From a virus: a stretch of DNA of 44,295 nt. The notes under the pieces were generated by a model, which was given only the letters and a program-made list of their open reading frames with translations, ran no database searches and had not been told where the DNA came from. Positions 3,382-30,090 of the stretch are shown here, one piece after another. The stretch is taken from the UHGV virus genome UHGV-0091795, one strand, 5' to 3'. The position numbers were made by a program, and so were the translations under genes. The stretch's first letter is position 1. Each line of letters begins with the position of its first letter.

Positions 3382-3562
3382 ACAACTCACTATTAAATCC
3401 TTTAATTTGCATCAAGAACAGCAGTGTCAGCCCTAGGCTCTCGGACTTTGTACCGCTTATCTTATCTTCAAAAATCAGCTCGCATCCTGCACAGTTCAGC
3501 GCATTACGTTGTAGATCTGTGTTCTGGTCATTTGTTGACACACGTACATAGCCAATAAGCAT
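3371..3562 (-). pseudogene. pin: truncated Din-family serine DNA invertase (Pin/Gin/Hin-like)
   Basis: N-terminus MLIGYVRVSTNDQNTDLQRNAL is near-identical to Pin/Gin/Hin including the catalytic Ser region. The ORF diverges after about 45 residues and stops after about 63 codons; intact invertases are about 185-190 aa. Its 3' end abuts the GmrSD-like gene. Confidence 0.75.
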
Positions 3563-3588
3563 GGTAGATCTCCCTGACAAAAGCAGGA

Positions 3589-4131: not shown

Positions 4132-4733
4132 TGGATAACGCTGTATTAAATAGCGAGTTTATTGCTACAAAGGCGGGGAATATTACCGTCTATAACTATG
4201 ATGGCGAAACACGGGAATATATTTCCACATCAACTGAATATCTTGCCGTTGGTGTCGGTATCCCTGCATATTCCTGTTTAGATGCCCCTGGCACATACAA
4301 AGCTGGTTATGCAATCTGCCGATCTGTAGATTTTAACTCATGGGAATATGTGCCAGACCATCGCGGTGAAATCGTCTTTAGCACCGAAACAGGAGAATCA
4401 AAAGAAATCACAGTTCCGGGTGATTACCCTGATAATACAACCACTATCGCCCCTTTATCTCCATACGATAAATGGGATGGTGAGAAATGGGTGACCGATA
4501 CTGAGGCACAGCATAGCGCCGCAGTAGACGCGGCAGAAGCACAGCGCCAGTCACTGATTGATGCTGCAATGGCTTCCATCAGTCTGATTCAGCTGAAATT
4601 AAAGGCCGGACGGAAACTGACGCAGGCAGAAACAACCCAGCTTAACGCTGTGCTGGATTACATTGACGCGGTGACGGCAACAGATACCAGCACCGCGCCG
4701 AATGTCATCTGGCCTGAACTGCCGGAGGCGTAG
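4131..4733 (+). CDS. tail-fibre assembly protein (alternative copy, Tfa/U'-like)
   Basis: 200-aa ORF immediately after the alternative fibre segment; its 3' end overlaps the convergent minus-strand tfa gene, as in Mu G-segment and e14 P-segment layouts. Confidence 0.65.
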   Translation: MDNAVLNSEFIATKAGNITVYNYDGETREYISTSTEYLAVGVGIPAYSCLDAPGTYKAGYAICRSVDFNSWEYVPDHRGEIVFSTETGESKEITVPGDYPDNTTTIAPLSPYDKWDGEKWVTDTEAQHSAAVDAAEAQRQSLIDAAMASISLIQLKLKAGRKLTQAETTQLNAVLDYIDAVTATDTSTAPNVIWPELPEA

Positions 4734-5166
4734 GCCATTCAATATCTGGAGCACTGGAGGGATCAACCAGCTCCAGTGCGTCCAGATAATCCAGCCACAA
4801 ATTATATTGTGCCAGTTCCTCACCTTTCAGACGACCGATAGCTGCTTTACCAGGCCATTGCTTACCGTTCATGTATTCGTTGGCATGGTCAATTCTCGAC
4901 TTTTTCTCTGAGTCAGCCGCAGCAAGTTGTTCTTTATGCGTAGGTGACGGAAGATCTACCCAGCAAGGCAACCCATCATCACCAATGCCACGCATTTTAC
5001 CCTCAGGAGCGTTTCCCATGAAAACCAGTGCATCTTCAGCATTTATATTGATGCCGTCTGACGGCCATGTGCCAGCAGTTAAATAATCATATTTCAGTGC
5101 CACAAGATAAAAAGCATTTTCCGTCGGGCTGAATACATAGTCGACCATTAATATCCTACTCCCCAT
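4705..5166 (-). CDS. tail-fibre assembly protein (Tfa/U-like)
   Basis: 153-aa ORF directly downstream of the tail-fibre gene; C-terminal region resembles the plus-strand copy ([20 protein letters not shown] versus [23 protein letters not shown]). Confidence 0.65.
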
Positions 5167-5792
5167 ACTGCCACTGTTGAATTAGATTTCGTGTATGCGC
5201 AAGCGGCTTTGAATTTGACCCGGTCAACAATCGCTGCGCTAACAAAAGGGGCTCCATTAGTCGCGTAGATCACAGAATTGACCAGCGAAGGATTGATGGA
5301 AAGGCAAGCATTAGGAAAGGCAACCGGCCATGAGTCATCAACAACGACCATATTACCGTCGGTAGATTGCGGCACTGATAGCGTCTTCCACTGAAGCAAT
5401 GCTGTTCGTTGTACTCCACCAATTAATACTGGAATAGTGATGTTACCTGCACTGCTGGCTAATGCTGTCGCAGCAGGCATTTTCGCTGCTTCTCCCAAAC
5501 CAAGGTTTTCGAGAGCCGTTTTCACCGTGCCATCCGATTTGATATCGCCAAACGGATTCTTGCGGCTTAACAGCAGCGCACGAAGCGCGGTAAGCAGCTG
5601 GTCATGCCGCCCCTTCTCCAGGCTGGCACCGGAGGCCTCCACCACGCTGCAAAGCTCCTCCTGCAACATGTCAAAGTAGTCATCATCCAGATCGGTGGCA
5701 GGTGTGCCGGTCTGGGGGTTACCACGGGTAAAACCGTTCTTACCCGCGCCGAACTTATCCTTCTGCGCGGTTTTCGTGTCTATACGATGCAT
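5148..5792 (-). CDS. tail-fibre protein (constant N-terminus + currently expressed variable C-terminus)
   Basis: 214-aa ORF following the baseplate genes; the crossover site lies inside the gene at about codon 95 ([10 protein letters not shown]). Confidence 0.65.
5489..5508. repeat. hix/gix-like inversion crossover site (inside the tail-fibre gene)
   Basis: cttctcccaaaccaaggttt contains the palindromic core aaaccaaggtttt resembling Hin/Gin recombination sites; inverted copy of 3624-3643. Confidence 0.6.
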
Positions 5793-5795
5793 GGA

Positions 5796-6380
5796 TTACT
5801 CCGGATATTTAAAAATTATGTAGGTATGCGACGGGCAGAGTTTGTTAAGCACACACTCGACAACGGTGTCGCCCCAGATACGCAGTGCGGAATCACAGGG
5901 ATCGCCACATGTCATCCAGGTGGTGTTGGTGTCGGCTGGCATGTTGATCTGCCAGTAATACCGCCATTCCGGCGCATTCACCGCGTCAGTACAGGCCGAT
6001 GAGCAGGTGAACGTGCTTTTGTCGTATCGCGTGATGGTGGCATCTGGTCTGCCCAGGGCAGCAAGCTGTGCAAGATAAAAATCCTCGTTGATGCCGCCCG
6101 CCAGGTTAACCTTCGCATCCAGCCGTTGCTGACGCTGGCGAAGGGTCTGCGTTACCGCCGGAATACATTCATCCGGCAGACCGCACAGACGCTCCCAGCG
6201 GTTTATCAGTTCAGTGGTGGTGCGCGGATCCAGCTCCCGCATCAGGGCATCCGCACGCTGATGAACGCGGGTTAATGACGGTGCTGCACCGGCAATCGCC
6301 GGATCGCTGGCTGACCACGCCGGACCAGGGGGCAACAGTGCCGACAACAGACGGATGTAATCATCGTTTGTCACGTCCAT
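5796..6380 (-). CDS. phage tail protein (Mu gp48-like, DUF2313/YmfQ-like)
   Basis: 194-aa ORF between the baseplate J-like gene and the tail fibre, in the Mu-like gene order. Confidence 0.5.
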
Positions 6381-7429
6381 GAAATCGTCCCCAGAACCGC
6401 CAGTTCATTTTTCGCAATGGAGATATTGTCCGCCGGGGCAAGCAACTGATGGCTGTATTCCCCGTTCGCACCGGAAATCGCTTCACTGATACGTGACACC
6501 TTCAGTTCTCCCTGCGGATAACCATCACGCAGCAGGAACGAACGCAACTCGGCGGTGATGGCAGCCCGTATTTCCGGTGTGTCCGGCGTCACGCGGATAT
6601 GAAAATCCACTTTATGCGCCACCGGCCTGAATACATACAAATCAGAGCCTGCCACCGGGGCCAGTGGCTCGATATGTTGTCTTGCCGACGTTTCCGTTGA
6701 CTCTTCCGGAATGGGATTAATCAGGTCACTGCTGGCAATCATCACACCGACAGTCCCCGTTCCCATCCAGTGTCGGTATATCCATGCGCGGGTAATGCCG
6801 GGCACTTCTTTAGCCCAGACGACATAGTCCCCGTCAGCCCCGCCCTGAGGCGTCCAGTAATACCGCTCAATGACGCGGGCGCGCCACGTTTCCAGATCTT
6901 CAGCATCAAATCCGCCTGTCAGGGTGTCAGCCACACCGGAAGACGGCAGACCATTCACCGGCGTGACCAGGATTAATGCCGTACCGTCGTCAGTGTTACC
7001 GACCGCGCCTGCATTTGAGCAGGCGATCGGCACACGCAGGACACCACCGGAGCTGGTTGCATCGGCAGTTGCCGTGTACTGAACCAGGTCATCGCGCTGA
7101 ATCACGCTCCCGGCAGTCACCTTCAGGCCATCGCTGACACCTTCCCAGCGCATATACCCGCTGGCAGCCGTGGCCCCCTTGCGCGGACACCGTTTCATCG
7201 CAGCATGTCGCGCCAGCCAGGACTCATCGCACAGGTCAGGCAGCATGTTCATTGCCAGATAATCGATGTACCCGTAAACCGTATGCAGCGCCGCCGCATA
7301 CACCTTTGCCCGCACGTCTTCATCCATGCGCCGGAGCGTGTCGCTGACGTCCAGCCTGGCGAATAAATCGTTACGGAGCATACTGATATTTTCTGCCAGC
7401 GTCGGGCGCTGAAATTCACTGTCCGCCAT
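6371..7429 (-). CDS. baseplate J-like protein (Mu gp47-like)
   Basis: 352-aa ORF in a conserved position within the Mu-like baseplate block; overlapping start/stop coupling with neighbours. Confidence 0.55.
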
Positions 7430-17213: not shown

Positions 17214-18419
17214 TTACGCCGCTGCAATCTTCAGCAGTTTGATGGCCTGCGAATCGACCAGCATCCCGCCGGTGCGCTTGGTGGTATAAAAACCGACAAA
17301 CGGTTTATTGGTGTACGGGTCACGCAGAATGCGGGTGCCGATACGGTCAACGATGGTGTAACCCCGTTTGAAGTTACCAAATGCAATGGCTTTCGCATCA
17401 GCGGCGATATCCGGCATCTGTTCGTTTTCAGCGATACCGTAACCCGCCAGAGAGGACGGCTGCCCCAGTTCCAGCCCCGGACGCCACAGATAGTTACCCT
17501 CGGTGTCTTTCAGCAGACGGATGGCAAACAGGCTGTTGTTGTTCATCATGAACTTCGCGCCAGTGCGGTGTGCCTTACGCAGCGTGTAAATCAGTTTGAT
17601 AATGGCGTCTGCGGTCACCGCGGTCGCTTCGCCGGATACAATATGCTGAAGTTTGCCGAACGCCCGGACCTTGTCGGTTTCATCAGTGGATTCATACGCC
17701 AGGAACCCTTTCGGCTTCTTGGTGCCATCGCCTGAGGTAAAGGCAATTTCTTCCTGTTCGGCAAATTCGGTTGCCAGCTCGCTGTTGATCCAGGCCTCCA
17801 CGTTGAAGAAGGCATCGTCCAGCATTTTCTGGGTAGCCTGCGGGTTGCCGTAAATTTCCCCCATGAGAGGTTCAATCAGCTCCAGTCTGGATGTGGCAGT
17901 CTGGGATCGCGTATCCGTTTCCCCCACCCATCCGGAAGCCGTACCGCCCAGATTCACCAGTTTTTTGTAGTCGGAACCGCCAACGGTGATCACCGTGGCT
18001 TCCTGACGCATCACCACTTCATCTTTCAGCAGGTTAAGAATGTTGCGATCCAGTTCTTCCGGCACGGCGTAGCCACCGTCTTCATCGGTACCCACCTGCA
18101 ATGCCTTACGCTCCAGATCGCGCAGACCGTCTTCACGGCCTTTACGCAGGAAGCCCACAAACGCCTCTTTATGCTCGGTGGCCAGTTTATTTTGCGCTCC
18201 ACCAGCCGGACGTTTCAGCTCAAGCAGCTCTTTTTCAAGGTCGCTTTTGAGATTTTCCAGCTCGCTGAGTTTCCCGTTCAGGGTTTCCACCTGCCCGGCA
18301 AGTTTGCCTTTTTCCTGCTCAATCGCATCCACGCGCTTGTCGTTCTTTGCCTTGAAGTCGTCAAACTTCTGCTGCAGCTCCTGCGCGACCTGTTCCACAT
18401 CTTTAATATCAATCGCCAT
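17214..18419 (-). CDS. major capsid protein (HK97 family, with N-terminal delta/scaffold domain)
   Basis: 401-aa ORF with an N-terminal coiled-coil segment followed by a capsid-fold region; located after the prohead protease. Confidence 0.8.
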   Translation of the reverse strand: MAIDIKDVEQVAQELQQKFDDFKAKNDKRVDAIEQEKGKLAGQVETLNGKLSELENLKSDLEKELLELKRPAGGAQNKLATEHKEAFVGFLRKGREDGLRDLERKALQVGTDEDGGYAVPEELDRNILNLLKDEVVMRQEATVITVGGSDYKKLVNLGGTASGWVGETDTRSQTATSRLELIEPLMGEIYGNPQATQKMLDDAFFNVEAWINSELATEFAEQEEIAFTSGDGTKKPKGFLAYESTDETDKVRAFGKLQHIVSGEATAVTADAIIKLIYTLRKAHRTGAKFMMNNNSLFAIRLLKDTEGNYLWRPGLELGQPSSLAGYGIAENEQMPDIAADAKAIAFGNFKRGYTIVDRIGTRILRDPYTNKPFVGFYTTKRTGGMLVDSQAIKLLKIAAA

Positions 18420-18433
18420 CGTATTTCTCCTGA

Positions 18434-19120
18434 TTAGAAGTTCAGATTTTTCAGTGCATTCAGTGCAGAGCCCACATCCTCAGCGTCGCGCAGGGACAGT
18501 GCGCCATAGCCCCCGGCCATGAATGCTTTGGCCTGGGTACGGGAGAGTCCGACATCACGCAGGACTCTTTCGATTTTTTTCTGTTCGGGGATTTCCCCGC
18601 GGGCCAGCGCGTTCTTGACGTCGCTGATCCGCGCCTCGTCGTTAGACGGAAACGTCACCAGACTGACTTCCCAGAGGTCGATTTCTTTCAACAGAAAGGC
18701 TTCTTTGCTCCAGTCGTATTCCCAGTCTTTCAGGACGTACCCAATAGAAAGGCCGGTTAACGAACCGGCCTTCATGTGTGCATGTGCGCGTTTTGCGAGG
18801 GGATCATCATCAATAAGCAACCGTCCCCTGACGTAAAGTCCGACATCGTCTTCCTTCATTTCAGTGTAAACACCGATGGGTTCATCCATGCGGTGCTGCC
18901 AGAGCAGCGCAGGTAACGCTTTTCTGTCACTCCACGCCCGCAGGGAAGCAGCAAATGCCCCGGACATCACCACATCATCGTGGCTGTCCTTTACACCAAA
19001 GACGGAGCCATACCCTTCAAACTCACCGGAGTCACTGACAGATTTCAGACTCAGCGGTACATCAAGACGTTGTTTCGTCTGCATTGGCGTTATCCTTCTG
19101 CTTACCGGCTTTACTGCCAT
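18434..19120 (-). CDS. prohead protease (HK97 family)
   Basis: 228-aa ORF between the portal and capsid genes, the canonical portal-protease-capsid order. Confidence 0.7.
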   Translation of the reverse strand: MAVKPVSRRITPMQTKQRLDVPLSLKSVSDSGEFEGYGSVFGVKDSHDDVVMSGAFAASLRAWSDRKALPALLWQHRMDEPIGVYTEMKEDDVGLYVRGRLLIDDDPLAKRAHAHMKAGSLTGLSIGYVLKDWEYDWSKEAFLLKEIDLWEVSLVTFPSNDEARISDVKNALARGEIPEQKKIERVLRDVGLSRTQAKAFMAGGYGALSLRDAEDVGSALNALKNLNF

Positions 19121-20303
19121 CGGAGGGTTTCGTGGTCATGTTCATCGGTGTGAGATAGACATCCCCACCGGGACGCGGATTCATATCTTCCAGGTCGCGG
19201 CAGTCATTGGGAGAGTAAATTCCCCAGTTAATCCCGGTGGCGTAGGCTTCAAAACGGGACTTCATATCCCCGCGCAGTAACGCCCCGGCGTTAAATTTGG
19301 CGTAATAAACGCCCTGCTTACTTTTTCGTACCAGTCCGGTGTTGATCCGCTGCTCAATGCGGGTCAGATACGGCACCAGTGAATAGTTGATAAATCCCAG
19401 CCCCAGTTCTTCGATATTGTTGAAGGTGGCACGATCGGTGTTCTGCACCATGTGCAATGGCACACGGAACAGACGACAGATTTCTTCAAGCTGAAACTTG
19501 CGGGTTTCCAGGAACTGGCTGTCCTCGGCGTTCAGCGCCATCGACTTCCAGTCCAGCCCCATCTCAAGGATCATCGGGCGGTGAGCATTGCCAAGCCCGG
19601 TGTGACGCTCCTCAAAATCTTTCTTCAGGCGCTCATAAGCCTGATCTGACAGCGTCTGCTCTGTACGCAACACACCCGACGTCACCGCGCCATTGCTGAA
19701 CAGTCTGGCCCCGTGCTCTTCGGTCGCAGCTGCCAGCGATATTGCCTCGCGGGCATAGGCGATGGGATTCAGCCCCACCAGTCCGTCCAGCGTCAGCGTA
19801 CGCACATGCCAGATATCCTCCTGGCTCAGTACATCCGTGGAGCCATCCGGGAATGTGACCTGATAGATCGGCTCCCAGCTACTGTTAAGCTTCGGTACCA
19901 CACAGCCGGGATCGACGGGCAGCAGTTCAGCCACTTCGCCAAATGCTTTCACTTTGTAGGCGTAAAAGTTTCCCCGCAGGCACAGACAGGTGACCACCAG
20001 CTCCCAGAACTCCTGCGGCGTCATATAGCCATTGGGATGCGTGGAGATCAGCTTATGCAGACGTTCGCCAGTGGCTCTCTGCTTCAGGCTGCCGTTCAGG
20101 TGATACAGGTTGCAGGGCAACATCCCGACCGACTCCGCCAGCACCCTGACGCAGGAAAAAACCGCCGTCAGTCGCATGGCCCTCTGGCTGCTGATCTGCT
20201 TTCCGGTATAGGTGTCGTATGACAGCCCGATAGCATCCGCCAGCTCTGCTGGCGTGGTCACCGGTGCGTCACTTTTTCGTTGAAATAATCCCGAAAAGAA
20301 CAC
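19062..20303 (-). CDS. portal protein (HK97 family)
   Basis: 413-aa ORF downstream of the large terminase. Confidence 0.75.
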   Translation of the reverse strand: MFFSGLFQRKSDAPVTTPAELADAIGLSYDTYTGKQISSQRAMRLTAVFSCVRVLAESVGMLPCNLYHLNGSLKQRATGERLHKLISTHPNGYMTPQEFWELVVTCLCLRGNFYAYKVKAFGEVAELLPVDPGCVVPKLNSSWEPIYQVTFPDGSTDVLSQEDIWHVRTLTLDGLVGLNPIAYAREAISLAAATEEHGARLFSNGAVTSGVLRTEQTLSDQAYERLKKDFEERHTGLGNAHRPMILEMGLDWKSMALNAEDSQFLETRKFQLEEICRLFRVPLHMVQNTDRATFNNIEELGLGFINYSLVPYLTRIEQRINTGLVRKSKQGVYYAKFNAGALLRGDMKSRFEAYATGINWGIYSPNDCRDLEDMNPRPGGDVYLTPMNMTTKPSDGSKAGKQKDNANADETTS

Positions 20304-20485
20304 TATTTACCTCCACCAACAGACATCTGTGTACGGTCGAGATATCGCGCCACCAGCCACGACCAGAACAGGCACAACGCCCCGGCAACAACAAACCCCG
20401 CAGGGGGATAAATCAGCCAGGCACCATACGCCAGCAAAAGCACCCCCAGCACGCCCACCAGAGGCGCGAGAATCAGCATGATCAT
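20303..20485 (-). CDS. small membrane protein
   Basis: 60-aa hydrophobic ORF (two predicted TM segments) whose stop abuts the portal start. Confidence 0.35.
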
Positions 20486-20496
20486 AATTACCTCAG

Positions 20497-22230
20497 TTAA
20501 AGCGAGCGGATCCCGTAGGACTCAATGTGATCAGACAGCGTGTCTTCTTTCTCGTACAGCATGGCTCTGCCAACCGCCATAATCAGCGCAACTGCACCAT
20601 CGATTTTGTTTTCCGCCTGCTCTTTGACGGGCTTCACCACATCATCGTTACCCGGAATGGTTTTGCCGACCACGTTGCCGATACACCAGGTCATGATGGG
20701 ATTGCCATCATGATGAAAGCGCCCCGATTCAATTGCCGCTTCCAGCTCTTTCATCGGGTCGGACATGTTGGTGTAGTTCTGAATGATGGTGATGGGATTC
20801 AGGTCTTCATCAGCAAGGTCATGTGACAGCCCGGTCGCCCCGAAGGGGTCGATGGGTGACTCGCTGACCGGGCTGATTTTGTTCGCCGCTTTGGCCTCTT
20901 CGAGGATGTAGCGATAATCCACCTCTGCACCATCGGTAACGGTCAGGACGCCCATTTCCACCCATTTCTGAAAGCGTTCGGCTGTCCGGCGATCTTCATT
21001 TTTCTCGACGCTGTACACCGTGTCATACGGTACCCAGAAACGCGGGGCCACACTGTAGTAATGCGTTTTACCGTCAATCTCGCGGGTATAAAGTCGCGCC
21101 ATGCTGTTCATATCCAGCTTACGGGCCAGGTCAAAGGCCAGAATGCACGGCTGCCCCTCGAACTGCTCAAGGGTCAGTGATTTATCCTCGCAGCTCTGCC
21201 AGCTCACCAGGTTGAAATACGCCGAACGCGCCGACACCCAGATATTGAGGTGTTTTGTTTTAAAGACGTTTGCCAGACGGGCGTTATTTTTCGCACGCTG
21301 CTGCTGACTTAACAAAAATTCGCGATAAACCGACACGCCAATATTTGGATTGGCTTTTTCCAGCACCTGCGGGTTGGTCCAGTCGTCACCTTCGTCAACG
21401 GTATAGATGATCCCGAACAGTTCATCGTTGGGTACCGAACCGTTGAGCATCTCGATAACTTCCCGTCGCTTGTCGTAGCACGGCCCCTCAATGTTGTACC
21501 CGGCAGTAGTAATGGCCCACATCAGTGGCTGACGTCGCGCCCCCATCCCGGTAAGCATCGTGGTGTAAAGCGCATCGGTGGCGTGCTCGTGATATTCATC
21601 CACCACCGCACAGTGGGGTGATGAACCATCACCGGGGTTACCGATCAGCGGTTCAAACCGCGCGCCATCCTCCGGACGATTCATGTTTGAGGCGTTAACC
21701 TCAATCCCGAACGCTTCCGTCAGCATGGGTGTGCGTTTACACATCAGTCGCGCCGGGCGAAAGACTTCCCACGCCTGTTTCTCTGTCGTGGCACCGGAAT
21801 ACACTTCCGCGCCAAACTCGTTATCACAGGCAAAACAATACAGGGCAACACCGGCAGAGATTGCCGATTTGCCGTTCTTACGGGGGATTTCGGTATACAC
21901 CTCCCGGAAGCGGCGCAACCGGGTGCCTTTATTGACCCAGCCAAACGCACAGCAGATCACAAATAGCTGCCACGGCTCCAGCGTGATGGGCATCCTCTTG
22001 AATGCCCACTCACCCTTGGTGTGCGGCAACAGCTGAATAAATTTCGCGGCCCGTTCAGCCAGGTCCTTGTCGAAGCGGTAACGAAACGACTTACTTTTTT
22101 CCGCCATCAGGTCATCAAGATGGCGCTGGCAGGCCTGAATCACAAACTGGCAGGCCACAATCTTTCCGCGAACGACATCCCGGGCATACTGATTGGCAGC
22201 ATTTACGTTGGGGTAAGATTTCCGGCTCAT
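20497..22230 (-). CDS. terminase large subunit
   Basis: 577-aa ORF with ATPase and nuclease regions, upstream of the portal gene. Confidence 0.8.
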
Positions 22231-22730
22231 GATTCGATGATTTTCAGAAACGGGTTAGTGGCTTTCTTCTTCCCCGCCAGGCCAATCAGACGCTGGCGGC
22301 TGCTGGGGTCGAGTCCGAGCATTGCCCCCGTGCTGCTCATCTCGGACTCCTGTTCTTTTTTGGCGGTCAGCTCCGGATTTTTGACCCTGCCGCCCATTGC
22401 ACCGGTGATGGTGTTGCCCTGTATGGCAATATTTTTCACGGCACGTCGCCAGAACTCATAGGCCACGCACCACCGCTCAAGCACCGCGAGGTCAGTCACG
22501 CACAACAGGCCCTGACCGCAGAGTTCTTTGGTTGTCAGTTGCCACATGATCGTGGCGAGAGGGAGATTTTCTTCTGCGAACCACTCCGGTGGCTCAACAC
22601 CTTTGATGGGCGTAAAAACAGGTTCATCTTTATTCAGGGCTCGCTTGCCGGGGTTTCCGGCCAGCGCCTTGCGCGCCGTTGGCTTGGGGCGACGCCCGGA
22701 ACGCCCCGCCGTTCCAGCCATATGCGGCAC
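22227..22730 (-). CDS. terminase small subunit
   Basis: 167-aa ORF overlapping the large terminase start. Confidence 0.65.
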
Positions 22731-22846
22731 TCCTGGTTAAATTTCATTTTTCGCGGGTATAAAAAAACGATGGGGCGGGCAGTCCGGAAGACGTCAGGCC
22801 AAAGGGATTTGACCCGCCCCTCCCCTCTGGCAGTGGGAACTGGTTC

Positions 22847-23197
22847 TTACTTCAGCCGTTCACGGGCCGTCTTCGCCTTATGACACGGCCAGCACAGACT
22901 CTGCAGATTATTGTCGGCATCAGTGCCGCCATGCGCTTTAGGGATGATGTGGTCAACGGTTTTTGCTTCACGCACCACGCCAGCACGCTGGCATAACTGA
23001 CATAAACCTTTGTCACGCTTCAGCACGCGCGCGCGGATAACGTCCCACTTCGAACCATAACCGCGCTGATGACGGGACTGACCTGGCTTGTATTGCTTCC
23101 AGCCTTCGCTTTTGTGGCTTTCGCAGTAGCCTGAAGGATCTGTGGTGGTATGGCGGCAGCCGCGAAAACGGCAGGCTTTTGGGGTTCGTGGTGGCAT
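22847..23197 (-). CDS. HNH endonuclease (packaging-associated)
   Basis: 116-aa ORF with Cys-rich zinc-finger and HNH-like motifs (DHIIPKAHGG ... CWPCH) immediately upstream of the terminase genes, as in HK97-like phages. Confidence 0.7.
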   Translation of the reverse strand: MPPRTPKACRFRGCRHTTTDPSGYCESHKSEGWKQYKPGQSRHQRGYGSKWDVIRARVLKRDKGLCQLCQRAGVVREAKTVDHIIPKAHGGTDADNNLQSLCWPCHKAKTARERLK

Positions 23198-23299
23198 TTA
23201 AAGTGGGATCTAACTCTAATAATTTAAAAAATTTAATTGGGTCTTGATATTAATCACATAGACTCAATGCTCTTTAGTTCTTACATAGGTGGTTGTATT

Positions 23300-23467
23300 A
23301 TGAGTATCCCCAGTTTAGATGTTCATAAAGTTGTTAAGTGCGCGGAGCATAAAAAGGCTTTAGATGCAATATCTCTCAAACTTAAGAATAACATTATTGA
23401 CTCAAGCACTGAATGCGATTTTCTTGGCGACACAATAATTTTCAATCAAGATAAAAAAATAGGTTAA
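23300..23467 (+). CDS. hypothetical protein (AT-rich islet; possible 5' part of a frameshifted gene)
   Basis: ATG at 23300 preceded by aggtgg; the ORF ends just after an A7 run at 23453-23459. Confidence 0.3.
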   Translation: MSIPSLDVHKVVKCAEHKKALDAISLKLKNNIIDSSTECDFLGDTIIFNQDKKIG

Positions 23468-23739
23468 CCCTCAAACTTTCAACATATGAACTAGAACTTA
23501 TTTTCAAAGAAACACTGCTGATCATTGATGACGCTCCTGTATTGAAGTTTGCTGCCATTGACCCAACCGATGAAAATAACAACGAGTTGATTGGTTTATT
23601 TTTATCCAAAAATGGATTTATTTATATTAGAGAATACAAATCCGAGCAACGTTATGAATATGGCGACACTTCTCTATTTTTACATATACTTGACGCTACT
23701 CTTAAAGAGCTTAAAGCTGCAAACAAAATATCCTATTAA
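23455..23739 (+). CDS. hypothetical protein (AT-rich islet; possible 3' part of a frameshifted gene)
   Basis: Open frame from 23455 with no in-frame ATG before a TTG at 23542; it is in the -1 frame relative to the upstream ORF across the A7 run. Confidence 0.3.
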   Translation, partial: KNRLTLKLSTYELELIFKETLLIIDDAPVLKFAAIDPTDENNNELIGLFLSKNGFIYIREYKSEQRYEYGDTSLFLHILDATLKELKAANKISY

Positions 23740-23917
23740 ATAAATTTTTGCTAACATAGCCCCTCGCCATGACAAGATTTTCTGTTCTAGATGCAAGGGC
23801 TATGTGTGAATATCTATAAACAAAAACCCCATCCGGTGATTTTTGTCATTTTTTAGCCATCTCAATTGCGGCATCAAAAAGTCGTTCAAGAATAAAATCA
23901 GGGTACTGTAATTTTTC

Positions 23918-24160
23918 TTACTCGATATGAAGCTTATAAATTTTTCTTCCCCACTCCCATTTAAAATCAAATCCAGAAGCAGAAGGTGCGAAATGTATTT
24001 TAGCTTTAGGGTTAGCGTAACCAGCAACAGTCAACACATCAAACTTAAAATCTTGAGGTTTAATACGCATAGTCATATCCTTTACCAAGTTCATCATTAT
24101 TCTTCGCGAGAATAAAACAATGAATAAAATCATTAAAGCATAGACGTTAAATATCCTCAA
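23918..24160 (-). CDS. hypothetical small protein downstream of Rz
   Basis: 80-aa AT-rich ORF on the late-gene strand immediately after Rz; unrecognised. Confidence 0.3.
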   Translation of the reverse strand: MRIFNVYALMILFIVLFSRRIMMNLVKDMTMRIKPQDFKFDVLTVAGYANPKAKIHFAPSASGFDFKWEWGRKIYKLHIE

Positions 24161-24167
24161 AATGTGA

Positions 24168-24626
24168 TTAGTTGGGACATTGCGTCCTGATATACTCCTG
24201 CAAGTAATTCACCTGTGAGGTTATCTTGTCGATTCCACTTCGGAGACGGTAATAATTGAGTTCAGCATCTGCTGTAAGTCCTGGGCTTTCTCCATCGCCC
24301 ATGCCGCTGGCTCCGGTCGTTGACTTTGCACAGGTGGCGGCGACTTGCAGGCGCTTACGCCCAGCAGAAACATCAGCACGGAGACTTTCGATAGTCGCGT
24401 TAGCATCAGCAAGCTCCTTTGTGTATCTTGCGTCGAGTTCTGCTACATCACGTTGACGCTTCCGCATGTCAGCGATGGTGGCGTTCGCCTTCTCCAGTTC
24501 ACTGGCCTTGTTATCGCGCTGCTCCTTGTAGGCGATTGCGTTATCACGGTAATGATTAACAGCCAATGACAGGCAGACGATGATGCAGATAACCAGAGCG
24601 GAGATAATCGCGGTTACTCTGCTCAT
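24168..24626 (-). CDS. Rz: i-spanin Rz
   Basis: [20 protein letters not shown]... with N-terminal TM segment and coiled-coil body, closely resembling lambda Rz. Confidence 0.85.
24221..24412 (-). CDS. Rz1: o-spanin Rz1 (embedded in the +1 frame of Rz)
   Basis: Signal peptide with lipobox (LGVSAC) followed by a proline-rich segment ([15 protein letters not shown]), embedded in Rz like lambda Rz1. Confidence 0.7.
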
Positions 24627-25120
24627 TGTTTCCCCCACAAACAGACTTCACGCTCAATCTCACGGCGAGTCATCAGTCCTTTCCATTGATTACCGCCAGC
24701 GTATGTCCAGCGCCGTAGCTGATCACATGCGCCTTTAATATCACCCTGGTTTATTTTGCGAAGAAGCGTCGATGTTCTGAAATTGCCAGCACCCACGTTG
24801 TAGACGAACGAGTAAAGAGCGCCGCGCGTTGTTTCCGGTATATCGACTTTGATGTACGGGTTAATTTGTCTGGCGACAGTGGCAAGGTCTTTATTCAAGA
24901 GTGCTTTGCATTCTGCTTTGGTATACGTTTTACCGAGCATGATGTCTTTTCCTGTATGCCCGTGACATACAGTCCATACACCAACAATATCTTTGTATGG
25001 TATGTAGCTGACACCTTCCAGACCATCGTTACCACTTGGGCCAGTGATTAACACTGATGCTATAGCAATTGCTCCGCCACCAATAGCAGCAGCAACGGCT
25101 TTTCGTAATGATGGAGGCAT
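24623..25120 (-). CDS. R: SAR endolysin (phage 21 R-like lysozyme)
   Basis: 165-aa ORF with an N-terminal Gly/Ala-rich signal-anchor-release segment ([18 protein letters not shown]) and a lysozyme domain; closely resembles phage 21 R. Confidence 0.85.
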
Positions 25121-25335
25121 TATTCACCTCTCGCAGCCTTGCGCTTATCTTCTTTAATCTTGAAATAAAGGTTTGTCAGGTACGTCAGCAGGCCAAATAC
25201 CAGGCTACCCAGCACACCTATTGCTGCCCACTGTGAGGGCGTGACTTTATCGAGCAGCTGTAAAAACCAGTAGCCAGCACTGCCTGCGGAGGTGCCGTAG
25301 GCAATGCCCGTTGTTAACTTATCCATGGATTTCAT
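25120..25335 (-). CDS. S: pinholin (phage 21 S-like class II holin)
   Basis: 71-aa ORF with two TM segments and a charged C-terminus ([13 protein letters not shown]), and a dual-start Met-Lys...Met arrangement, like S21. Confidence 0.85.
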
Positions 25336-25522
25336 AGCCTCACCTCCGCAAATAACGGATGGTGTACACGGTTCGGAACGAAGAGGAAAGGTATAGAAGT
25401 TACATTAGCGTAAGGCTTGAACATCTATTCAAAAAGAAAAACGCCGCGATTATTCTGGCGTAGCTGAAAGCATCATACAATTATCAAATACGAAAATTAC
25501 AAAATCATTAAAACGCATCACG

Positions 25523-26263
25523 TTACATCATGTTTTTTTCTAAAAAAAATCTTGATGAATATTGATGGGGAGGAACACCAAAATACCTTCTGAAAACACT
25601 TACAAAATATGACGTGTTTTCATAACCGCATATCTCAGCAACTTTTCCAACAGAATATAAATTGTAGCTTAATAACCTTTCCGCCATCACCATTCGCTCT
25701 TCAAGAATTAACTTACTAAATGATAAGCCTTCGTCTTTTAATTTTCTTTTTAACAAACTCTCGCTCATATATAATCTTGAAGATATATCACAAAGTCTCC
25801 ATGACGCTGAGATATCCGTGTGAATAATAGCCTTAACTTTACTTCCCAAACTATTAAGACATCCAAATAAAAAACTTTGCACTATTTTCTCTGAAGATAA
25901 GATAGCAAGACATGCAAGTGATATTTGATTTCTAACAAAATCCACAGTTCTGCCATCACAATTCAAGCATGCAATCAAGTTCTTTAACAATGAAAAATCT
26001 TCACATTCCACCATCAAGTATGCCGGATAAAACCTTCTTACAGAAAAAGGTGAGAGTGTGTTGCTTTTAAAGAAATCATTAACTGTTTTCTCTTCAACAT
26101 CTACGATCATTACATGATCTACATTTGATGAAAAAAAATCTTTTAAATTGTAATCAATGAGAACAGCACTTCCTTTTTTAAACAAAATATCTTCTTTACC
26201 AATTCGGACATCAAACGAGTTCAACACCAAAATGATAGAACATATGTATGGCATATTATCCAC
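25523..26263 (-). CDS. AraC-family transcriptional regulator (moron)
   Basis: 246-aa AT-rich ORF whose C-terminus (VGKVAEICGYENTSYFVSVFRRYFGVPPHQY) is a classic AraC-type HTH. Confidence 0.7.
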   Translation of the reverse strand: MDNMPYICSIILVLNSFDVRIGKEDILFKKGSAVLIDYNLKDFFSSNVDHVMIVDVEEKTVNDFFKSNTLSPFSVRRFYPAYLMVECEDFSLLKNLIACLNCDGRTVDFVRNQISLACLAILSSEKIVQSFLFGCLNSLGSKVKAIIHTDISASWRLCDISSRLYMSESLLKRKLKDEGLSFSKLILEERMVMAERLLSYNLYSVGKVAEICGYENTSYFVSVFRRYFGVPPHQYSSRFFLEKNMM

Positions 26264-26359
26264 CTGATATCATTGGGGTTACACCAGGTAAGTATAGGTG
26301 AAATGATCTTACCCAGCAATAGTGGACACGCGGCTAAGTGAGTAAACTCTCAGTCAGAG

Positions 26360-26668
26360 GTGACTCACATGACAAAAACAGTATCAACCAGTAAAAAACC
26401 CCGTAAACAGCATTCGCCTGAATTTCGCAGTGAAGCCCTGAAGCTTGCTGAACGCATCGGTGTTACTGCCGCAGCCCGTGAACTCAGCCTGTATGAATCA
26501 CAGCTCTACAACTGGCGCAGTAAACAGCAAAATCAGCAGACGTCTTCTGAACGTGAACTGGAGATGTCTACCGAGATTGCACGTCTCAAACGCCAGCTGG
26601 CAGAACGGGATGAAGAGCTGGCTATCCTCCAAAAGGCCGCGACATACTTCGCGAAGCGCCTGAAATGA
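26360..26668 (+). CDS. insE: IS3 transposase OrfA
   Basis: 102-aa [35 protein letters not shown]... with HTH and leucine zipper, matching IS3 OrfA. Confidence 0.9.
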
Positions 26669-27531
26669 AGTATGTCTTTATTGAAAAACATCAGGCTGAG
26701 TTCAGCATCAAAGCAATGTGCCGCGTGCTCCGGGTGGCCCGCAGCGGCTGGTATACGTGGTGTCAGCGGCGGACAAGGATAAGCACGCGTCAGCAGTTCC
26801 GCCAACACTGCGACAGCGTTGTCCTCGCGGCTTTTACCCGGTCAAAACAGCGTTACGGTGCCCCACGCCTGACGGATGAACTGCGTGCTCAGGGTTACCC
26901 CTTTAACGTAAAAACCGTGGCGGCAAGCCTGCGCCGTCAGGGACTGAGGGCAAAGGCCTCCCGGAAGTTCAGCCCGGTCAGCTACCGCGCACACGGCCTG
27001 CCTGTGTCAGAAAATCTGTTGGAGCAGGATTTTTACGCCAGTGGCCCGAACCAGAAGTGGGCAGGAGACATCACGTACTTACGTACAGATGAAGGCTGGC
27101 TGTATCTGGCAGTGGTCATTGACCTGTGGTCACGTGCCGTTATTGGCTGGTCAATGTCGCCACGCATGACGGCGCAACTGGCCTGCGATGCCCTGCAGAT
27201 GGCGCTGTGGCGGCGTAAGAGGCCCCGGAACGTTATCGTTCACACGGACCGTGGAGGCCAGTACTGTTCAGCAGATTATCAGGCGCAACTGAAGCGGCAT
27301 AATCTGCGTGGAAGTATGAGCGCAAAAGGTTGCTGCTACGATAATGCCTGCGTGGAAAGCTTCTTTCATTCGCTGAAAGTGGAATGTATCCATGGAGAAC
27401 ACTTTATCAGCCGGGAAATAATGCGGGCAACGGTGTTTAATTATATCGAATGTGATTACAATCGGTGGCGGCGGCACAGTTGGTGTGGCGGCCTCAGTCC
27501 GGAACAATTTGAAAACAAGAACCTCGCTTAG
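26665..27531 (+). CDS. insF: IS3 transposase OrfB (DDE catalytic domain)
   Basis: 288-aa ORF overlapping orfA in the -1 frame, the IS3 frameshift arrangement; contains a DDE integrase-core region. Confidence 0.9.
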
Positions 27532-27866
27532 GCCTGTGTCCATATTACGTGGGTAGGATCAAAAAATCAATATTCGCCAGTTCAACAATAAGGAAAATTT
27601 CATTGCATCACAAGTATAAAATTATGTATTTAACTCACAAAGACAAATTATTAAACCAATCTGTTATATTATATATAGCTGCGTGGAATCATAATATTAT
27701 ATATTTTGACTGGCATGTTTACCAACTTTAAGTTGCATCTCAATTGTTTCTTCAGCGTAAACAGAGTTTTTATACAAACTGACACTCTGGGTATCATAGT
27801 GTAGTTTTTACGATTGTAAATATCCTGTATGCAGGAACTCATCCTTTTGGATGATATCGCATACAA

Positions 27867-28826
27867 TTAATTTACCATCAGTCTTAGAGCCAGTTCGTCC
27901 GGATAGGGATCGAAGTAATTCTGTGTAAGCAAGTAATCATTAGGATACTCACCCAGATAATGCTTCAGCAGAGTCAACGGCGCAAGAAGAGGTAATGTGC
28001 CAGAACGATAGTTAAGTATAACCTCGCTCAACTCTTTACGCTGGCGTGTACTTAAGTAGTTACTAAAATACCCCTGTATATGCATCAGCACATTCGTGTG
28101 ATTTTTACGTGATGCAGGTTTTCTGAGAATCGCCATCAGCTTATCACGATACACCTCAAAGTATGATTCAAGATCCGCCCACTCGTGTATTGCAGCCACA
28201 AATGGTCCCATATCTTTATAGCCTGTCTGATTATGCGCCAACAACTGAAGCTTATAACGACTATGAAAAGCCAATAACTCTCTTCTTGATAATTTCTCCT
28301 TGTAAAGGTGATTGAGCTCATGCAAAGCAAAAACTCTTTCAACAAAATTCTCACGAAGCACTGGATCATGTAATCGCCCATCCTCTTCAACCGGTAGCCA
28401 GGAAAACTTTTCCATCAAAGTGCTCGTAAATAGTCCCACTCCATCTTTACGACCTCGATTACCATTTTCATCATAGACACGCACGCGCTCCATGCCACAG
28501 CTGGGAGATTTAGCACAAACCACAAACCCCGATACATCCTTTAATTTGTCCATATAAGAACGACTAAACTCTGTCATTCTCTCTGTCACATCCTCATTCT
28601 GGTCGTGGCTGAAACACATCCGTATATTTCCTTGCGTCGAGCGCACAAGACGTAGAGCAGGACGCGGAACTGGCAGCCCTATAGCCATTTCCGGACATAC
28701 TGGTCTGAATGTTACCCATTCCACTAATTTGTCCATTAAAAAGTCAGCTCTTTTGTGACCACCATCAAAACGAACAGCAGAACCGGCCAAACAACCGCTG
28801 ATTCCAATCACAGGTTTTTTTATCAT
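27867..28826 (-). CDS. DUF523/DUF1722-family protein (moron)
   Basis: 319-aa ORF; N-terminus MIKKPVIGISGCLAGSAVRFDGGH matches the Cys-containing DUF523-type start, followed by a DUF1722-like C-terminal part. Lies in AT-rich surroundings. Confidence 0.55.
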   Translation of the reverse strand: MIKKPVIGISGCLAGSAVRFDGGHKRADFLMDKLVEWVTFRPVCPEMAIGLPVPRPALRLVRSTQGNIRMCFSHDQNEDVTERMTEFSRSYMDKLKDVSGFVVCAKSPSCGMERVRVYDENGNRGRKDGVGLFTSTLMEKFSWLPVEEDGRLHDPVLRENFVERVFALHELNHLYKEKLSRRELLAFHSRYKLQLLAHNQTGYKDMGPFVAAIHEWADLESYFEVYRDKLMAILRKPASRKNHTNVLMHIQGYFSNYLSTRQRKELSEVILNYRSGTLPLLAPLTLLKHYLGEYPNDYLLTQNYFDPYPDELALRLMVN

Positions 28827-29018
28827 ATCCTCCCCCTTGACTAATTCATTAACACATAAACTGTGTAGTGCACGGAATAAATTGCCTTTCTGGCGTCATC
28901 ACTGACAATTTTTCTGTTATGGACTATTCCTAATATAGTATGAAAGTTCTTTAAGTGATCGGTCGTAATCATCTATCTTTCATACTTACTCTCAACTATC
29001 AAAAGTACAGGATTTATT

Positions 29019-29543
29019 ATGAAGTTATGGCCTGTGTTGACTGGCATTGCGCTCTCTTTCACTCTTATAGCATGTAAGGCCCCGACACCACCTAAAGGTG
29101 TGCAGCCGATTACAAATTTTGACGCCAACCGCTACCTCGGAAAATGGTATGAAATAGCTCGCCTCGAGAACCGGTTCGAACGTGGTCTGGAACAGGTCAG
29201 CGCTACTTATGGAAAACGGAACGACGGAGGGATTCGTGTACTTAACCGTGGATACGATCCAACGAAAAATAAATGGAGCGAGAGCGAAGGTAAAGCATAC
29301 TTTACTGGAGATACTAAAACTGCAGCGTTGAAGGTTTCGTTTTTTGGCCCCTTCTATGGTGGCTATAATGTAATCAAACTGGATGATGAGTATAAGTATG
29401 CTCTTGTCAGTGGTCCGAACAGAGAATACCTATGGATTCTGGCAAGGACCTCAACTATTCCAGATAAAGTAAAAGCAGACTATGTGCGAACCGCTCAAAA
29501 GTTGGGATTCAATGTCAATGAATTATTATGGGTTAAACAATAA
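29019..29543 (+). CDS. blc: outer-membrane lipocalin (Blc-like lipoprotein)
   Basis: 174-aa ORF with lipoprotein signal (LIAC) and strong similarity to E. coli Blc (NFDANRYLGKWYEIARLENRFERGLE ... KVSFFGPFYGGYNVI). Confidence 0.8.
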   Translation: MKLWPVLTGIALSFTLIACKAPTPPKGVQPITNFDANRYLGKWYEIARLENRFERGLEQVSATYGKRNDGGIRVLNRGYDPTKNKWSESEGKAYFTGDTKTAALKVSFFGPFYGGYNVIKLDDEYKYALVSGPNREYLWILARTSTIPDKVKADYVRTAQKLGFNVNELLWVKQ

Positions 29544-29571
29544 AATCCCTACCCGAAATGATACTTATTAG

Positions 29572-29598
29572 AAAAAAACCAGCCTTTGGGGAGGCTGG
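29572..29598 (-). terminator. intrinsic terminator downstream of Q (tR'-like), also positioned after blc
   Basis: Hairpin ccagcc-tttgggga-ggctgg preceded on the plus strand by A7, so it is followed by T7 on the minus strand. Confidence 0.6.
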
Positions 29599-29698
29599 CT
29601 AAATCAGGAAACAAGCTGTTATATGATAATAACTACGTTGCGATTCCAACATTTAAAATGTTAGACTAATGACAATCAGACAGCAACTTTTCCTTTAA

Positions 29699-30090
29699 TT
29701 ATTTCGAACAATCAGCATCCATCTCCAATCGGAGATCCAACACCATCAGCATACCCTCCACTACGCCCTCAGCTTTCTGGAGCATCCTGCCAACCCAACA
29801 ATCAGATCGCCCATGTTTACGTGCAAGCGCCATAAACGTCATGCCGCCGACATAATAGTCCACCAATAAATCATGCAAATCGCTGTTGTTCTTTTTCAGA
29901 CGGCCATGCACCCGCAAATGATCATCGCGTCATCGTCACAACATTGTGGGCGAGATTTTACTTTTGAAGGAATTAATCCCTTAAAACCGGCGGCAATGGA
30001 CGACCAGGTCACATCTTCATGATTATTAGCCGCCCACGCTCCCCAACGCTCAAGAACCATCTGAATATCACGCATCAACTTACTCCACAA
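29699..30090 (-). pseudogene. late-gene antiterminator Q (phage 82/DLP12 QuuD-like), interrupted by a -1 frameshift
   Basis: Two overlapping ORFs (29896-30090 N-terminal part with Cys cluster [14 protein letters not shown]; 29699-29917 C-terminal part [13 protein letters not shown]...) read as one protein if a single base is restored at about 29917. Confidence 0.6.

Follow-up and report, generated by a model that had tools for sequence, protein, structure and literature searches.

A putative prophage accessory gene, frameshifted at a length-variable poly-A run, in an exchangeable slot between the lysis and packaging genes of a lambdoid prophage

On the lambda map, bor is an AT-rich gene added to the end of the lysis cassette, next to Rz and antisense to late transcription, and it is absent or replaced in sibling phages. 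It is expressed by lambda lysogens, and an antisense position relative to lytic genes is typical of moron loci (PMC7067206). The morons of HK97 and HK022, in the accounts of Juhala et al. (2000) and of Cumby, Davidson & Maxwell (2012) as relayed by PMC7067206, are likewise cargo of deviant composition set between conserved modules. Two further bodies of work concern homopolymers within genes. In the SSR contingency loci of Neisseria, Haemophilus, Campylobacter and Bordetella, a coding homopolymer toggles the reading frame, with ON and OFF alleles in near-identical genomes (PMC1891110, PMC5084427). In the Enterobacteriaceae, A/T runs of at least eight are mutational hot spots at which changes in length inactivate genes (PMC8538453, PMC8510543); the indel rate of E. 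coli rises exponentially with homopolymer length (PMC8510543), and the Salmonella work describes A/T runs of eight or more as often mutated (PMC8538453). Finally, in dnaX (A AAA AAG) and the IS3-family orfAB an A-rich run lies at the overlap of two frames and a -1 shift continues the protein.

Here we describe an islet of viral DNA that resembles each of these systems in part. It lies in a stretch of 44,295 nt (UHGV virus genome UHGV-0091795), referred to below in its entirety as the window, and its features are collected in Table 1.

Table 1. Features of the AT-rich islet and its flanks, in window coordinates
Feature	Position	Strand	Evidence or remark
HNH endonuclease gene	22847..23197	-	Pfam PF01844, E 3.6e-16; left flank and left boundary of the cassette
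Mosaic cassette: AT-rich islet and 3' third of Rz/Rz1	23198..24341	.	Unrelated sequence there in L021
Shine-Dalgarno AGGTGG	23287..23292	+	7 nt before ATG 23300; read from sequence
Putative accessory gene, 146 codons at A8, frameshifted here	23300..23742	+	Intact homologues, dN/dS, AF2 model
A7 homopolymer, frameshift site	23453..23459	+	A8/A5 in frame, A7/A9 out of frame
Spacer between convergent genes	23743..23852	.	Two hairpins, ~23754-23810 and 23820-23846, then a T-run
74-codon late-strand gene, cut to 50 codons here	23846..24070	-	UTI89 WP_001220676.1; homologues P0013-P0017
In-frame TAA, nonsense (relatives CAA, Gln51)	23918..23920	-	Removes predicted C-terminal helix
Rz spanin gene with embedded Rz1	24168..24638	-	Pfam PF03245, E 6e-40; right flank
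Rz1-like ORF	24221-24412		Inside Rz

The stretch between the HNH and Rz genes (23198-24167) has ~33% GC. Positions 23201-24000 stand at 33%, compared with 55-58% for the flank at 22-23.2 kb and ~50% for Rz, which bears out the initial annotation of about 1 kb of AT-rich DNA between the HNH/terminase genes and Rz. By block, the GC fraction is 0.275 in the 5' leader, 0.327 in the plus-strand gene, 0.388 in the spacer, 0.347 in the minus-strand gene and 0.289 in the Rz-proximal spacer. More AT-rich islets occur at 25.6-26.4, 27.6-28 and 31.6-33.6 kb, and the present one is not unique within the window. Pfam identifies the flanking genes (HNH, Terminase_4, Rz Phage_lysis, lysozyme and a P21-type holin). 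Rfam and tRNA scans of the whole window returned nothing, and a search of phage GenBank records for a copy of the islet matched only 48 nt of HNH.

L021, the closest complete E. coli prophage, is 97.7% identical in the flanks and carries unrelated minus-strand genes of 67 and 124 aa in the slot. BLAST of window positions 18000-30000 against this prophage gives matches at 18000-23197 and 24342-26303 with nothing between them. On these alignments the exchanged module runs on to about 24341 and takes in the 3' part of Rz, an extension that the initial annotation missed; in L013, L030 and L031, homology to the window stops at 24476, also within Rz. Replacement between conserved genes in a sibling, together with 33% GC against 52-56% in the flanking genes, is what characterizes a moron, and the plus-strand gene lies antisense to late transcription, between the lysis genes and HNH/TerS, in all five lineages found. 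The earlier suggestion of a horizontally acquired moron holds in so far as this gene appears to be exchangeable accessory cargo, antisense everywhere, but it does not extend to the 74-codon gene next to Rz, which is not part of it. Unlike randomly acquired morons, which are less faithful to position, the family keeps the same antisense slot between lysis and packaging genes down to 30% identity.

The transcription signals expected of a moron are less clear in the window than in its relatives. Scans of the window for consensus promoters and terminators gave scores at chance level and none above it; the spacer folds with an MFE of -22.9 kcal/mol (z -1.9), and its hairpins may be terminators of a non-canonical kind. 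Homologous loci are more explicit: in L004, L022 and L025 the stop codon is followed directly by a clear intrinsic terminator, in the same place as the window spacer, and a TATAAT box lies upstream of the homologue in L022/L023. With respect to the HK97 and HK022 morons as PMC7067206 portrays them, the terminator and -10 box of these homologous loci are points of likeness, whereas the window's own promoter and terminator are not convincing.

From the ATG at 23300, the first plus-strand ORF runs for 55 aa to the TAA at 23465-23467, and the -1 frame stays open from 23455 until its stop codon at 23740-23742. The two meet exactly at the A7 run, where the 0 frame reads GAT AAA AAA ATA GGT TAA, and insertion of one A into the run restores an ORF of 146 aa. 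Full-length homologues are P0002 (146 aa, 166 member sequences), P0001, P0004 (143 aa) and P0005 (146 aa), with further intact copies in L013 (146 aa) and P0009/P0010; each is a single ORF, which supports the initial view that the two ORFs belong together as the halves of a single ~150-aa gene, connected by a -1 shift (one additional A), and leaves no homologue arranged as two independent genes. The L013 copy is particularly close, being 98.8% identical to the window over 2.5 kb and differing within the gene by one substitution and by A8 in place of A7. At 30-62% identity the homologues lack an A-run in this place: the L004 sequence is GATATAGAAAATAGA, and the homologue proteins read 'DIENRL', 'DAENRL' and similar. 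The family is small, since an exhaustive HMMER search of 1.84 billion representatives found only six proteins, three of which are fragments of frameshifted alleles.

Both halves also appear to be maintained as one protein. Against L004, dN/dS is 0.30-0.33 (0.24 for the N-terminal and 0.37 for the C-terminal part), indicating purifying selection on both halves in one frame at long range. The AF2 model of the 146-aa protein is a single compact domain over both halves (pLDDT 82.5), with helices at residues 8-37 and 124-140 and a six-stranded sheet that spans the junction. Judged from the sequence, the two short ORFs make up a single prophage accessory gene of 146 codons, broken here at the A-run. 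PGAP calls the 65-aa TTG-start ORF a hypothetical protein in two A7 genomes, as would be expected if ORFs of 55 and 65 aa were two independent genes lying side by side by chance; on reading the sequence, however, no Shine-Dalgarno motif precedes TTG 23542, and the single protein in all intact relatives, the sheet across the junction and selection on both halves in one frame make such a pair of genes extremely improbable.

The product is probably a small cytoplasmic alpha+beta protein-binding module. Its N-terminus, MSIPSLDVHKVVK, is hydrophilic and predicted to be helical from residue 8, and neither a signal peptide nor a lipobox was seen on reading the sequence. Neither the fused 146-aa protein nor the 74-aa protein has a significant match in Pfam, PHROGs, PADLOC or NCBIfam, so the profile search suggested with the initial annotation did not identify the fused product; profile searches of both proteins against PDB sequences found nothing. 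The gene resembles bor in its place and orientation, in being AT-rich beside its neighbours and in being replaced in a sibling phage, but differs from it in what it encodes, a predicted soluble protein that has no Pfam match, signal peptide or lipobox; membership of the Lambda Bor lipoprotein family was rejected on the missing Pfam, PHROG or NCBIfam match and the hydrophilic N-terminus. A known anti-phage defence protein was likewise rejected, the best PADLOC-DB defence HMM (PDC-M24A) matching only at E 0.014 over 31 residues, as was a restriction-modification product, there being no family match of any kind. Literature searches with the RefSeq protein accessions found no papers, and the exact tract-flank pattern had no match in GTDB representative genomes.

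Two frames meeting at an A-rich run, with a -1 shift that continues the protein, recall dnaX and the IS3-family orfAB, and a programmed slip had been among the initial suggestions. The A7 run would then be a functional design in which most ribosomes give the 55-aa product, together with a fraction of 146-aa fusion, made by a -1 shift or an extra A. The seven A's place Lys codons in the P and A sites, where low-frequency slippage is possible, the -1 frame has no stop between the run and the end of the gene, and A7 is common (43 complete genomes). Unlike those systems, the window has no canonical in-frame heptamer, stimulator or conserved split, and intact alleles exist: none of the homologues has a two-ORF layout, the intact ones being single ORFs with A8, A5 or no run. 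The 0 frame, GAU AAA AAA AUA, offers the heptamer U AAA AAA rather than X XXY YYZ, with UAA as the triplet on which the Lys tRNA in the P site would have to re-pair. Folding of the 81 nt downstream of the run gives -4.6 kcal/mol (z +1.5), weaker than for 193 of 200 shuffles, no SD-like stimulator is present in the 20 nt upstream, and A9, which is likewise out of frame, is also found. E. coli RNA polymerase slips efficiently only on runs longer than seven, typically of nine or more A/T; transcriptional slippage is disfavoured by a run of seven whose length varies (5, 7, 8, 9) and whose out-of-frame state is not conserved. Given a non-canonical slip site with no structure behind it, and the lack of any two-ORF homologue, the window is better explained by a frameshift allele at a slippage-prone homopolymer, and recoding of either kind is highly improbable.

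The length of the run varies among close relatives. In copies verified at the DNA level, it is A7 in the window, A8 in L013 and L036, A5 in L030, A9 in L031 and A7 or A8 in ST95-type prophages; IMG/VR and metagenome contigs hold more A7 and A8 copies, homopolymer errors being possible in Logan and metagenome assemblies. The product has 146 aa at A8 and 145 aa at A5, as opposed to 55 aa at A7 and 54 aa at A9. Window-type copies with A5, A7, A8 and A9 show only five other variable sites over 966 nt, with at most two SNPs each. Of 102 complete E. coli genomes with the ST95-type prophage, 59 carry A8 and 43 carry A7, and overall the in-frame lengths are the most frequent. A8 is also the length in the sister prophage of C1 and Ecol_545, an indication that it is the ancestral state. 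As for chance occurrence, Markov-1 simulations give a mean of 1.3 A/T runs of at least seven per islet (P of at least one = 0.74), and the window contains 22 runs of seven or more; the A7 run is significant only because it falls exactly at the frame junction and is the sole indel separating the window from intact alleles. As far as these sequence comparisons go, the A8 run is a mutational hot spot that has changed length repeatedly among related E. coli prophages. The initial annotation had also offered a decay lesion and a phase-variable switch, and what stands is the mechanism common to both, replication slippage, to which lengths of 5, 7, 8 and 9 in near-identical copies attest.

Could the A7 of the window be a homopolymer miscall of a true A8? 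Such errors are common on some platforms, and IMT5155 shows several in core genes, because of which its own A7 is unreliable; the sole other copy identical to the window (L032) is 100% identical over 7.3 kb, so that it probably shares the window's source and offers no independent evidence. Against an artefact, A7 occurs in many independently sequenced genomes, including the Sanger-era UTI89 and recent hybrid assemblies, the distinction between A7 and A8 is well within Illumina and Sanger accuracy, and no other obvious frameshifts were seen in the adjacent conserved genes of the window. We consider a miscall very unlikely.

Alternatively, the tract may be an adaptive poly-A contingency locus, switched by slipped-strand mispairing between ON (A8, A5) and OFF (A7, A9), with the window in the OFF state. 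As in SSR-controlled genes, the length of a coding tract sets ON or OFF, and length polymorphism recurs among very close relatives (four window-type lengths; A7/A8 in ST95), both states being found in near-identical backgrounds in two lineages. The tract was built by substitutions from a non-repetitive ancestral codon pair, GATATAGAAAAT to GATAAAAAAAAT, the downstream frame is still open in all A7 copies examined, and the tract indel is one of three differences between UTI89 (A7) and DSM 30083 (A8) over 40 kb, the others being two SNPs. However, a tract of eight A's is short beside classical contingency tracts, and the product cannot be recognised as a surface or restriction-modification protein and has none of the features of typical phase-variable proteins (signal peptide, lipobox, family match). 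P0003 carries a second frameshift and the adjacent gene a nonsense codon, both irreversible lesions of the same lineage, and the short-range dN/dS of the plus-strand gene, 0.78, fits relaxed constraint.

The distribution in ST95 is largely clonal, and the 42% OFF frequency says little about the switching rate because most ST95 A7 genomes look clonal. APEC O1 (A7) and the A8 strains SF-468, DSM 30083 and S88 have derived SNPs in common, which implies a second A8-to-A7 event, for which this genome is the only evidence in ST95. No clear A7-to-A8 reversion was demonstrated by SNP typing of ST95; this typing, on 50 kb of chromosomal flank, has low resolution, and UPEC129, GN06489 and W224N carry an uninformative ancestral haplotype. 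A 71-mer around the prophage SNP at L005:29960 occurs in 1329 records, including many other prophages, and was uninformative for a four-gamete test. The pattern also fits plain decay, and we judge adaptive phase variation to be unlikely, if worth keeping in view.

The second gene of the islet lies on the late strand, just after Rz. An 80-aa ORF with a TTG start (23918-24160) had been noted here; the DNA is indeed coding, but those boundaries are wrong, the start being ATG 24070, with AAGGA 7 nt upstream, and the end in relatives 23846. Its homologues P0013-P0017 lie directly 3' of Rz in L007-L012 (E. coli, Citrobacter and Enterobacter prophages), with dN/dS between genera of 0.06-0.17, and comparison across these prophages identifies the gene as a conserved Rz companion, separate from the antisense moron. 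A toxin-antitoxin or other obligate pair was considered and rejected, since in Citrobacter and Enterobacter the antisense genes beside the 74-aa gene are unrelated ones, and in L004 the neighbour of the 143-aa homologue of the plus-strand gene is an unrelated 76-aa gene. The in-frame TAA is common to all window-type copies and P0019; the AF2 model places a helix at residues 57-73 with low confidence (pLDDT 63) and is too poor for a structure search. With a frameshift in the 146-codon gene and a nonsense codon in the 74-codon gene, both cargo genes are therefore likely to be inactivated here.

Our results are likely to be best accounted for by exchangeable cargo made up of two independent genes, of which the 146-codon gene is present as an OFF allele produced by slippage at the A-run, most simply through hot-spot loss of dispensable cargo. 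The islet would occupy a cargo slot in an HK97-like lambdoid prophage, with the lysis cassette on one side and the HNH/terminase packaging genes on the other. The plus-strand gene, an ORFan, would be a separately transcribed moron expressed in the lysogen, and the 74-codon gene would travel with Rz. Loss of one A from A8 (GAT AAA AAA AAT AGG, D-K-K-N-R) by replication slippage would give A7, so that translation from ATG 23300 ends at 23465-23467 after 55 residues, leaving the last 94 codons in the -1 frame, presumably with no usable start. Since the tract is a recurrent indel hot spot (A5, A7, A8, A9), the lesion would be reversible in principle. In its simplest form, the dispensable gene would have been lost through the hot spot at no cost to its carrier, and the nonsense codon in the 74-codon gene, an independent lesion, would fit cargo decay in this lineage.

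Among the known systems, the A/T homopolymer mutational hot spot is the best-fitting category for the tract, with no difference of substance from the cases in PMC8538453 and PMC8510543, and the locus as a whole is an ordinary one. For annotation, the two short ORFs, including the 65-aa 'hypothetical protein' of PGAP, would become one frameshifted gene, and the '80-aa ORF' a nonsense-truncated 74-codon gene. The analysis also draws attention to a tiny, uncharacterised protein family whose antisense placement, between the lysis genes and the packaging genes, is strikingly conserved. It is doubtful that this is a dedicated lysogen-expressed family, resident at this junction in HK97-like enterobacterial prophages, with a real function for host or phage, such as superinfection exclusion or keeping late read-through into the packaging genes under control, for which A8 serves as an ON/OFF switch in E. 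coli. Natural ON (A8) and OFF (A7) alleles segregate in the clinically important ST95 ExPEC/APEC and provide isogenic-like pairs for the study of function. To our knowledge few SSR switches have been described in E. coli; if switching occurs at a high rate, this would be an unusual contingency locus for the species and a rare prophage-borne SSR phase-variable gene, and if not, a classic example of prophage cargo decaying at a homopolymer.

Some points run counter to simple loss. Four tract lengths in ~6 near-identical copies are many for A8 in mismatch-repair-proficient E. coli, an excess for which selected switching or a mutator background may be responsible. On A7, moreover, slippage of the ribosome or of RNA polymerase may yield full-length protein at a low level.

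The window carries an HK97-like lambdoid prophage with its late genes on the minus strand, and GC content is 33% between HNH and Rz versus 52–58% in the flanks. On the plus strand, an ATG at 23300, preceded by AGGTGG at 23287-23292, opens a 55-codon ORF that ends ...GAT AAA AAA ATA GGT TAA (stop 23465-23467), and the -1 frame is free of stops from 23455 to 23742. The two frames join at an A7 run (23453-23459) and the initial annotation, which described two plus-strand ORFs meeting at such a run, is therefore accurate. An A/T run of at least 7 is in itself unremarkable at the composition of the islet (simulated P ∼0.74 per islet; 22 such runs in the window).

Genes of the packaging and lysis region and of the inserted element
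Feature	Coordinates	Strand	Remark
TerL	20497-22230	-	packaging gene
TerS (Terminase_4)	22227-22730	-	packaging gene
HNH	22847-23197	-	packaging gene
post-Rz gene	23846-24070	-	stop 23918-23920 cuts to 50 codons
Rz with embedded Rz1-like ORF	24168-24638	-	lysis gene
lysozyme	24623-25120	-	lysis gene
P21-type holin	25120-25335	-	lysis gene
IS3-family orfA	26360-26668		HTH_Tnp_1 + rve for element
IS3-family orfB	26665-27531		HTH_Tnp_1 + rve for element

Both ORFs belong to one real gene, of which the window has a frameshifted allele, as is evident from full-length homologues, an intact relative, selection and predicted structure. The proposal that a -1 shift would fuse both ORFs into a protein of about 150 aa is borne out, since one extra A yields a 146-aa protein. 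Four relatives of this product, all covering both halves, were retrieved from 5.8 billion proteins. Among the homologues, P0001 (145 aa, 99% identical) reads 'DKNRL' at the run, P0002 (146 aa, 92% identical, 166 member sequences) 'DKKNRL' and P0004 (143 aa, 60% identical) 'DIENRL', while P0003 has A8 and a second frameshift farther on. Searched exhaustively with HMMER, 1.84 billion cluster representatives gave 6 matching proteins, 3 of full length (P0005, P0009 and P0010; 30–62% identity) and 3 fragments of frameshifted alleles, one of which (P0008, 54 aa) ends in 'DKKK*'. In L013, a contig from the same lineage as the window (98.8% identity across 2.5 kb), the run is A8 and the 146-codon ORF is intact, differing from the window gene by 1 substitution and the A that the window lacks. 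Long-range dN/dS is 0.30–0.33, and below 0.4 on each side of the run. AlphaFold2 predicts a single compact domain (pLDDT 82.5, pTM 0.75) with a helix at 8-37, a six-stranded antiparallel sheet and a helix at 124-140.

Tract lengths, taken straight from the DNA, vary among window-type copies: A7 in the window and L032, A8 in L013 and L036, A5 in L030 and A9 in L031. When the window, L013, L030 and L031 are aligned over the 966-nt islet, only five other positions vary; L032 and L036 were read apart from this four-copy alignment. L032 (IMGVR_UViG_3300029562_000227) is not an independent observation because it is identical to the window over 7.3 kb; its positions 1-7318 match window 18937-26254 at 100%, with both the A7 tract and the nonsense codon of the post-Rz gene present, and the two probably represent the same phage or source.

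The gene is also carried, in the ST95-type prophage (UTI89, DSM 30083 and others), by 102 complete E. coli genomes, of which 43 match the A7 71-mer exactly and 59 give a 72-nt match, verified as A8 in DSM 30083, C1, Ecol_545 and L003. In A8 genomes the PGAP annotation has a hypothetical protein of 146 aa (WP_000026993.1); in A7 genomes it has nothing or a 65-aa stub. UTI89 and DSM 30083 differ over 40 kb by two SNPs and the tract indel. A8 is probably the ancestral state, because in C1 and Ecol_545, which are not ST95 strains, a sister prophage carries A8. In SNP typing of the chromosomal flank, APEC O1 (A7) groups with the A8 strains SF-468, DSM 30083, S88, MS7163 and XM, which implies a second A8-to-A7 event; the other A7 genomes fit one clonal event. 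The A7 of APEC IMT5155 is untrustworthy because the same assembly (NZ_CP005930.1) has other homopolymer frameshifts: single-base indels throw the core genes gabD and yqaA out of frame when compared with four other ST95 genomes. These look like sequencing errors, and homopolymer states of this assembly are unfit as evidence. Near the prophage-bearing region, a tRNA-Arg array (35385-35742 in L014, one of the compared genomes) is polymorphic in copy number, with 3 tandem copies in UTI89 versus 4 in APEC O1, IMT5155, DSM 30083 and S88.

Taken over window-type and ST95-type copies, these lengths require at least four, probably five, independent changes. Remoter homologues do not have the run (L004, a compared genome, reads GATATAGAAAATAGA), so substitutions within the E. 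coli lineage created it. In E. coli the indel rate increases exponentially with run length (PMC8510543), and in Salmonella A/T runs of at least 8 are often mutated (PMC8538453). The run is a slippage hot spot and the window copy an OFF/pseudogene allele, which, together with the broken neighbouring gene, favours the decay lesion among the options first offered. Programmed recoding at A7, another of those options, is rejected: the heptamer in frame reads U AAA AAA, no SD-like stimulator was found upstream, the 81 nt 3' of the run fold more weakly than shuffled controls, no homologue keeps the split layout and an out-of-frame A9 also exists. Low-level slippage on A7 is possible, but nothing suggests that it is design. 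It is unlikely that tract switching is exploited as phase variation. A different small prophage gene (UTI89, L005 30762-31072), absent from the window, is annotated as 'frameshifted' in every ST95-type copy examined (likewise L006, L019, L020 and L026-L029) and is a fixed pseudogene or else a recoding site not yet recognised.

An '80-aa ORF' had been noted after Rz; a gene is indeed present, but its extent was wrong. It is a 74-codon gene (WP_001220676.1 in UTI89) read from ATG 24070, with AAGGA 7 nt 5', and is cut at codon 51, where the window, like every window-type copy (L013, L030, L031, L032, L036 and the protein P0019), has TAA in place of CAA, with loss of a predicted C-terminal helix. 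In prophages of E. coli, Citrobacter and Enterobacter the gene lies on the late strand directly 3' of Rz, regardless of terminase type and adjoining antisense cargo, and is under strong purifying selection (omega 0.06–0.17). Between the window and UTI89, nonsynonymous to synonymous changes stand at ∼5:1 (Nei–Gojobori estimate, nonsense codon excluded). Both genes of the cassette are thus broken in the window. A pairing of the two was considered and rejected, as the gene next to the 143-aa homologue in L004 is an unrelated one; they are independent modules.

The suggestion of a moron is supported by low GC, by exchange of the slot and by its antisense use. L021, the closest complete E. coli prophage (flanks 97.7% identical), matches the window to the HNH start (23197) and resumes at 24342, with two unrelated minus-strand genes between; because homology breaks there, the exchanged module comprises the islet and the 3' third of Rz (23198-24341). 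Its left edge is exactly the HNH start codon, its right edge lies inside Rz, and the Rz/Rz1 3' third moves with the islet. Since homology of L013, L030 and L031 also stops within Rz (at 24476), Rz seems to be a recombination joint. The 146-aa family lies antisense between the lysis cassette and HNH/TerS in 5/5 lineages recovered, including the 30–34% identical P0009 and P0010. Phage lambda bor occupies the same slot by position and orientation, but the 146-aa protein is not homologous to Bor, and no family homologous to it was found in Pfam, PHROG, PADLOC or NCBIfam. This antisense arrangement is described as typical of accessory loci (PMC7067206). Homologous loci have a clean intrinsic terminator directly 3' of the gene, and L022/L023 also a TATAAT box 5'; in the window islet, promoter and terminator scans were at chance level and the convergent-gene spacer has no more than moderate structure. 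Homopolymer frameshift hot spots and ORFan morons are both known kinds of locus. The analysis also yields corrected models for these genes and, within ST95, a series of naturally occurring ON and OFF alleles useful for functional studies.

Several other features of the window were observed. The GC-rich TerS–HNH spacer (22731-22846), with A7 at 22761-22767 and GGGGCGGGC...GCCCGCCCC-like symmetry, is where the cos site would be expected if packaging is of the HK97-like type that depends on HNH. A second AT-rich islet (32–35% GC), just upstream of the holin, holds an AraC-family regulator gene (HTH_18/HTH_AraC; 25523-26263, minus strand), whose homopolymers (T7 25533-25539, A8 25542-25549 and A8 26131-26138) could be similar indel hot spots. 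A 1259-bp IS3-family element (26304-27562) lies between this gene and a DUF1722 gene; L021 does not have it, and the 3-bp overlap of its flanks there points to a target duplication of 3 bp. The interval that separates the lysis genes from the antiterminator Q region has non-phage-like cargo (27867-29543): a 2-thiouracil desulfurase/DUF1722 (YbgA-like) gene and, convergent with it, a lipocalin gene. L021 has this cargo too.
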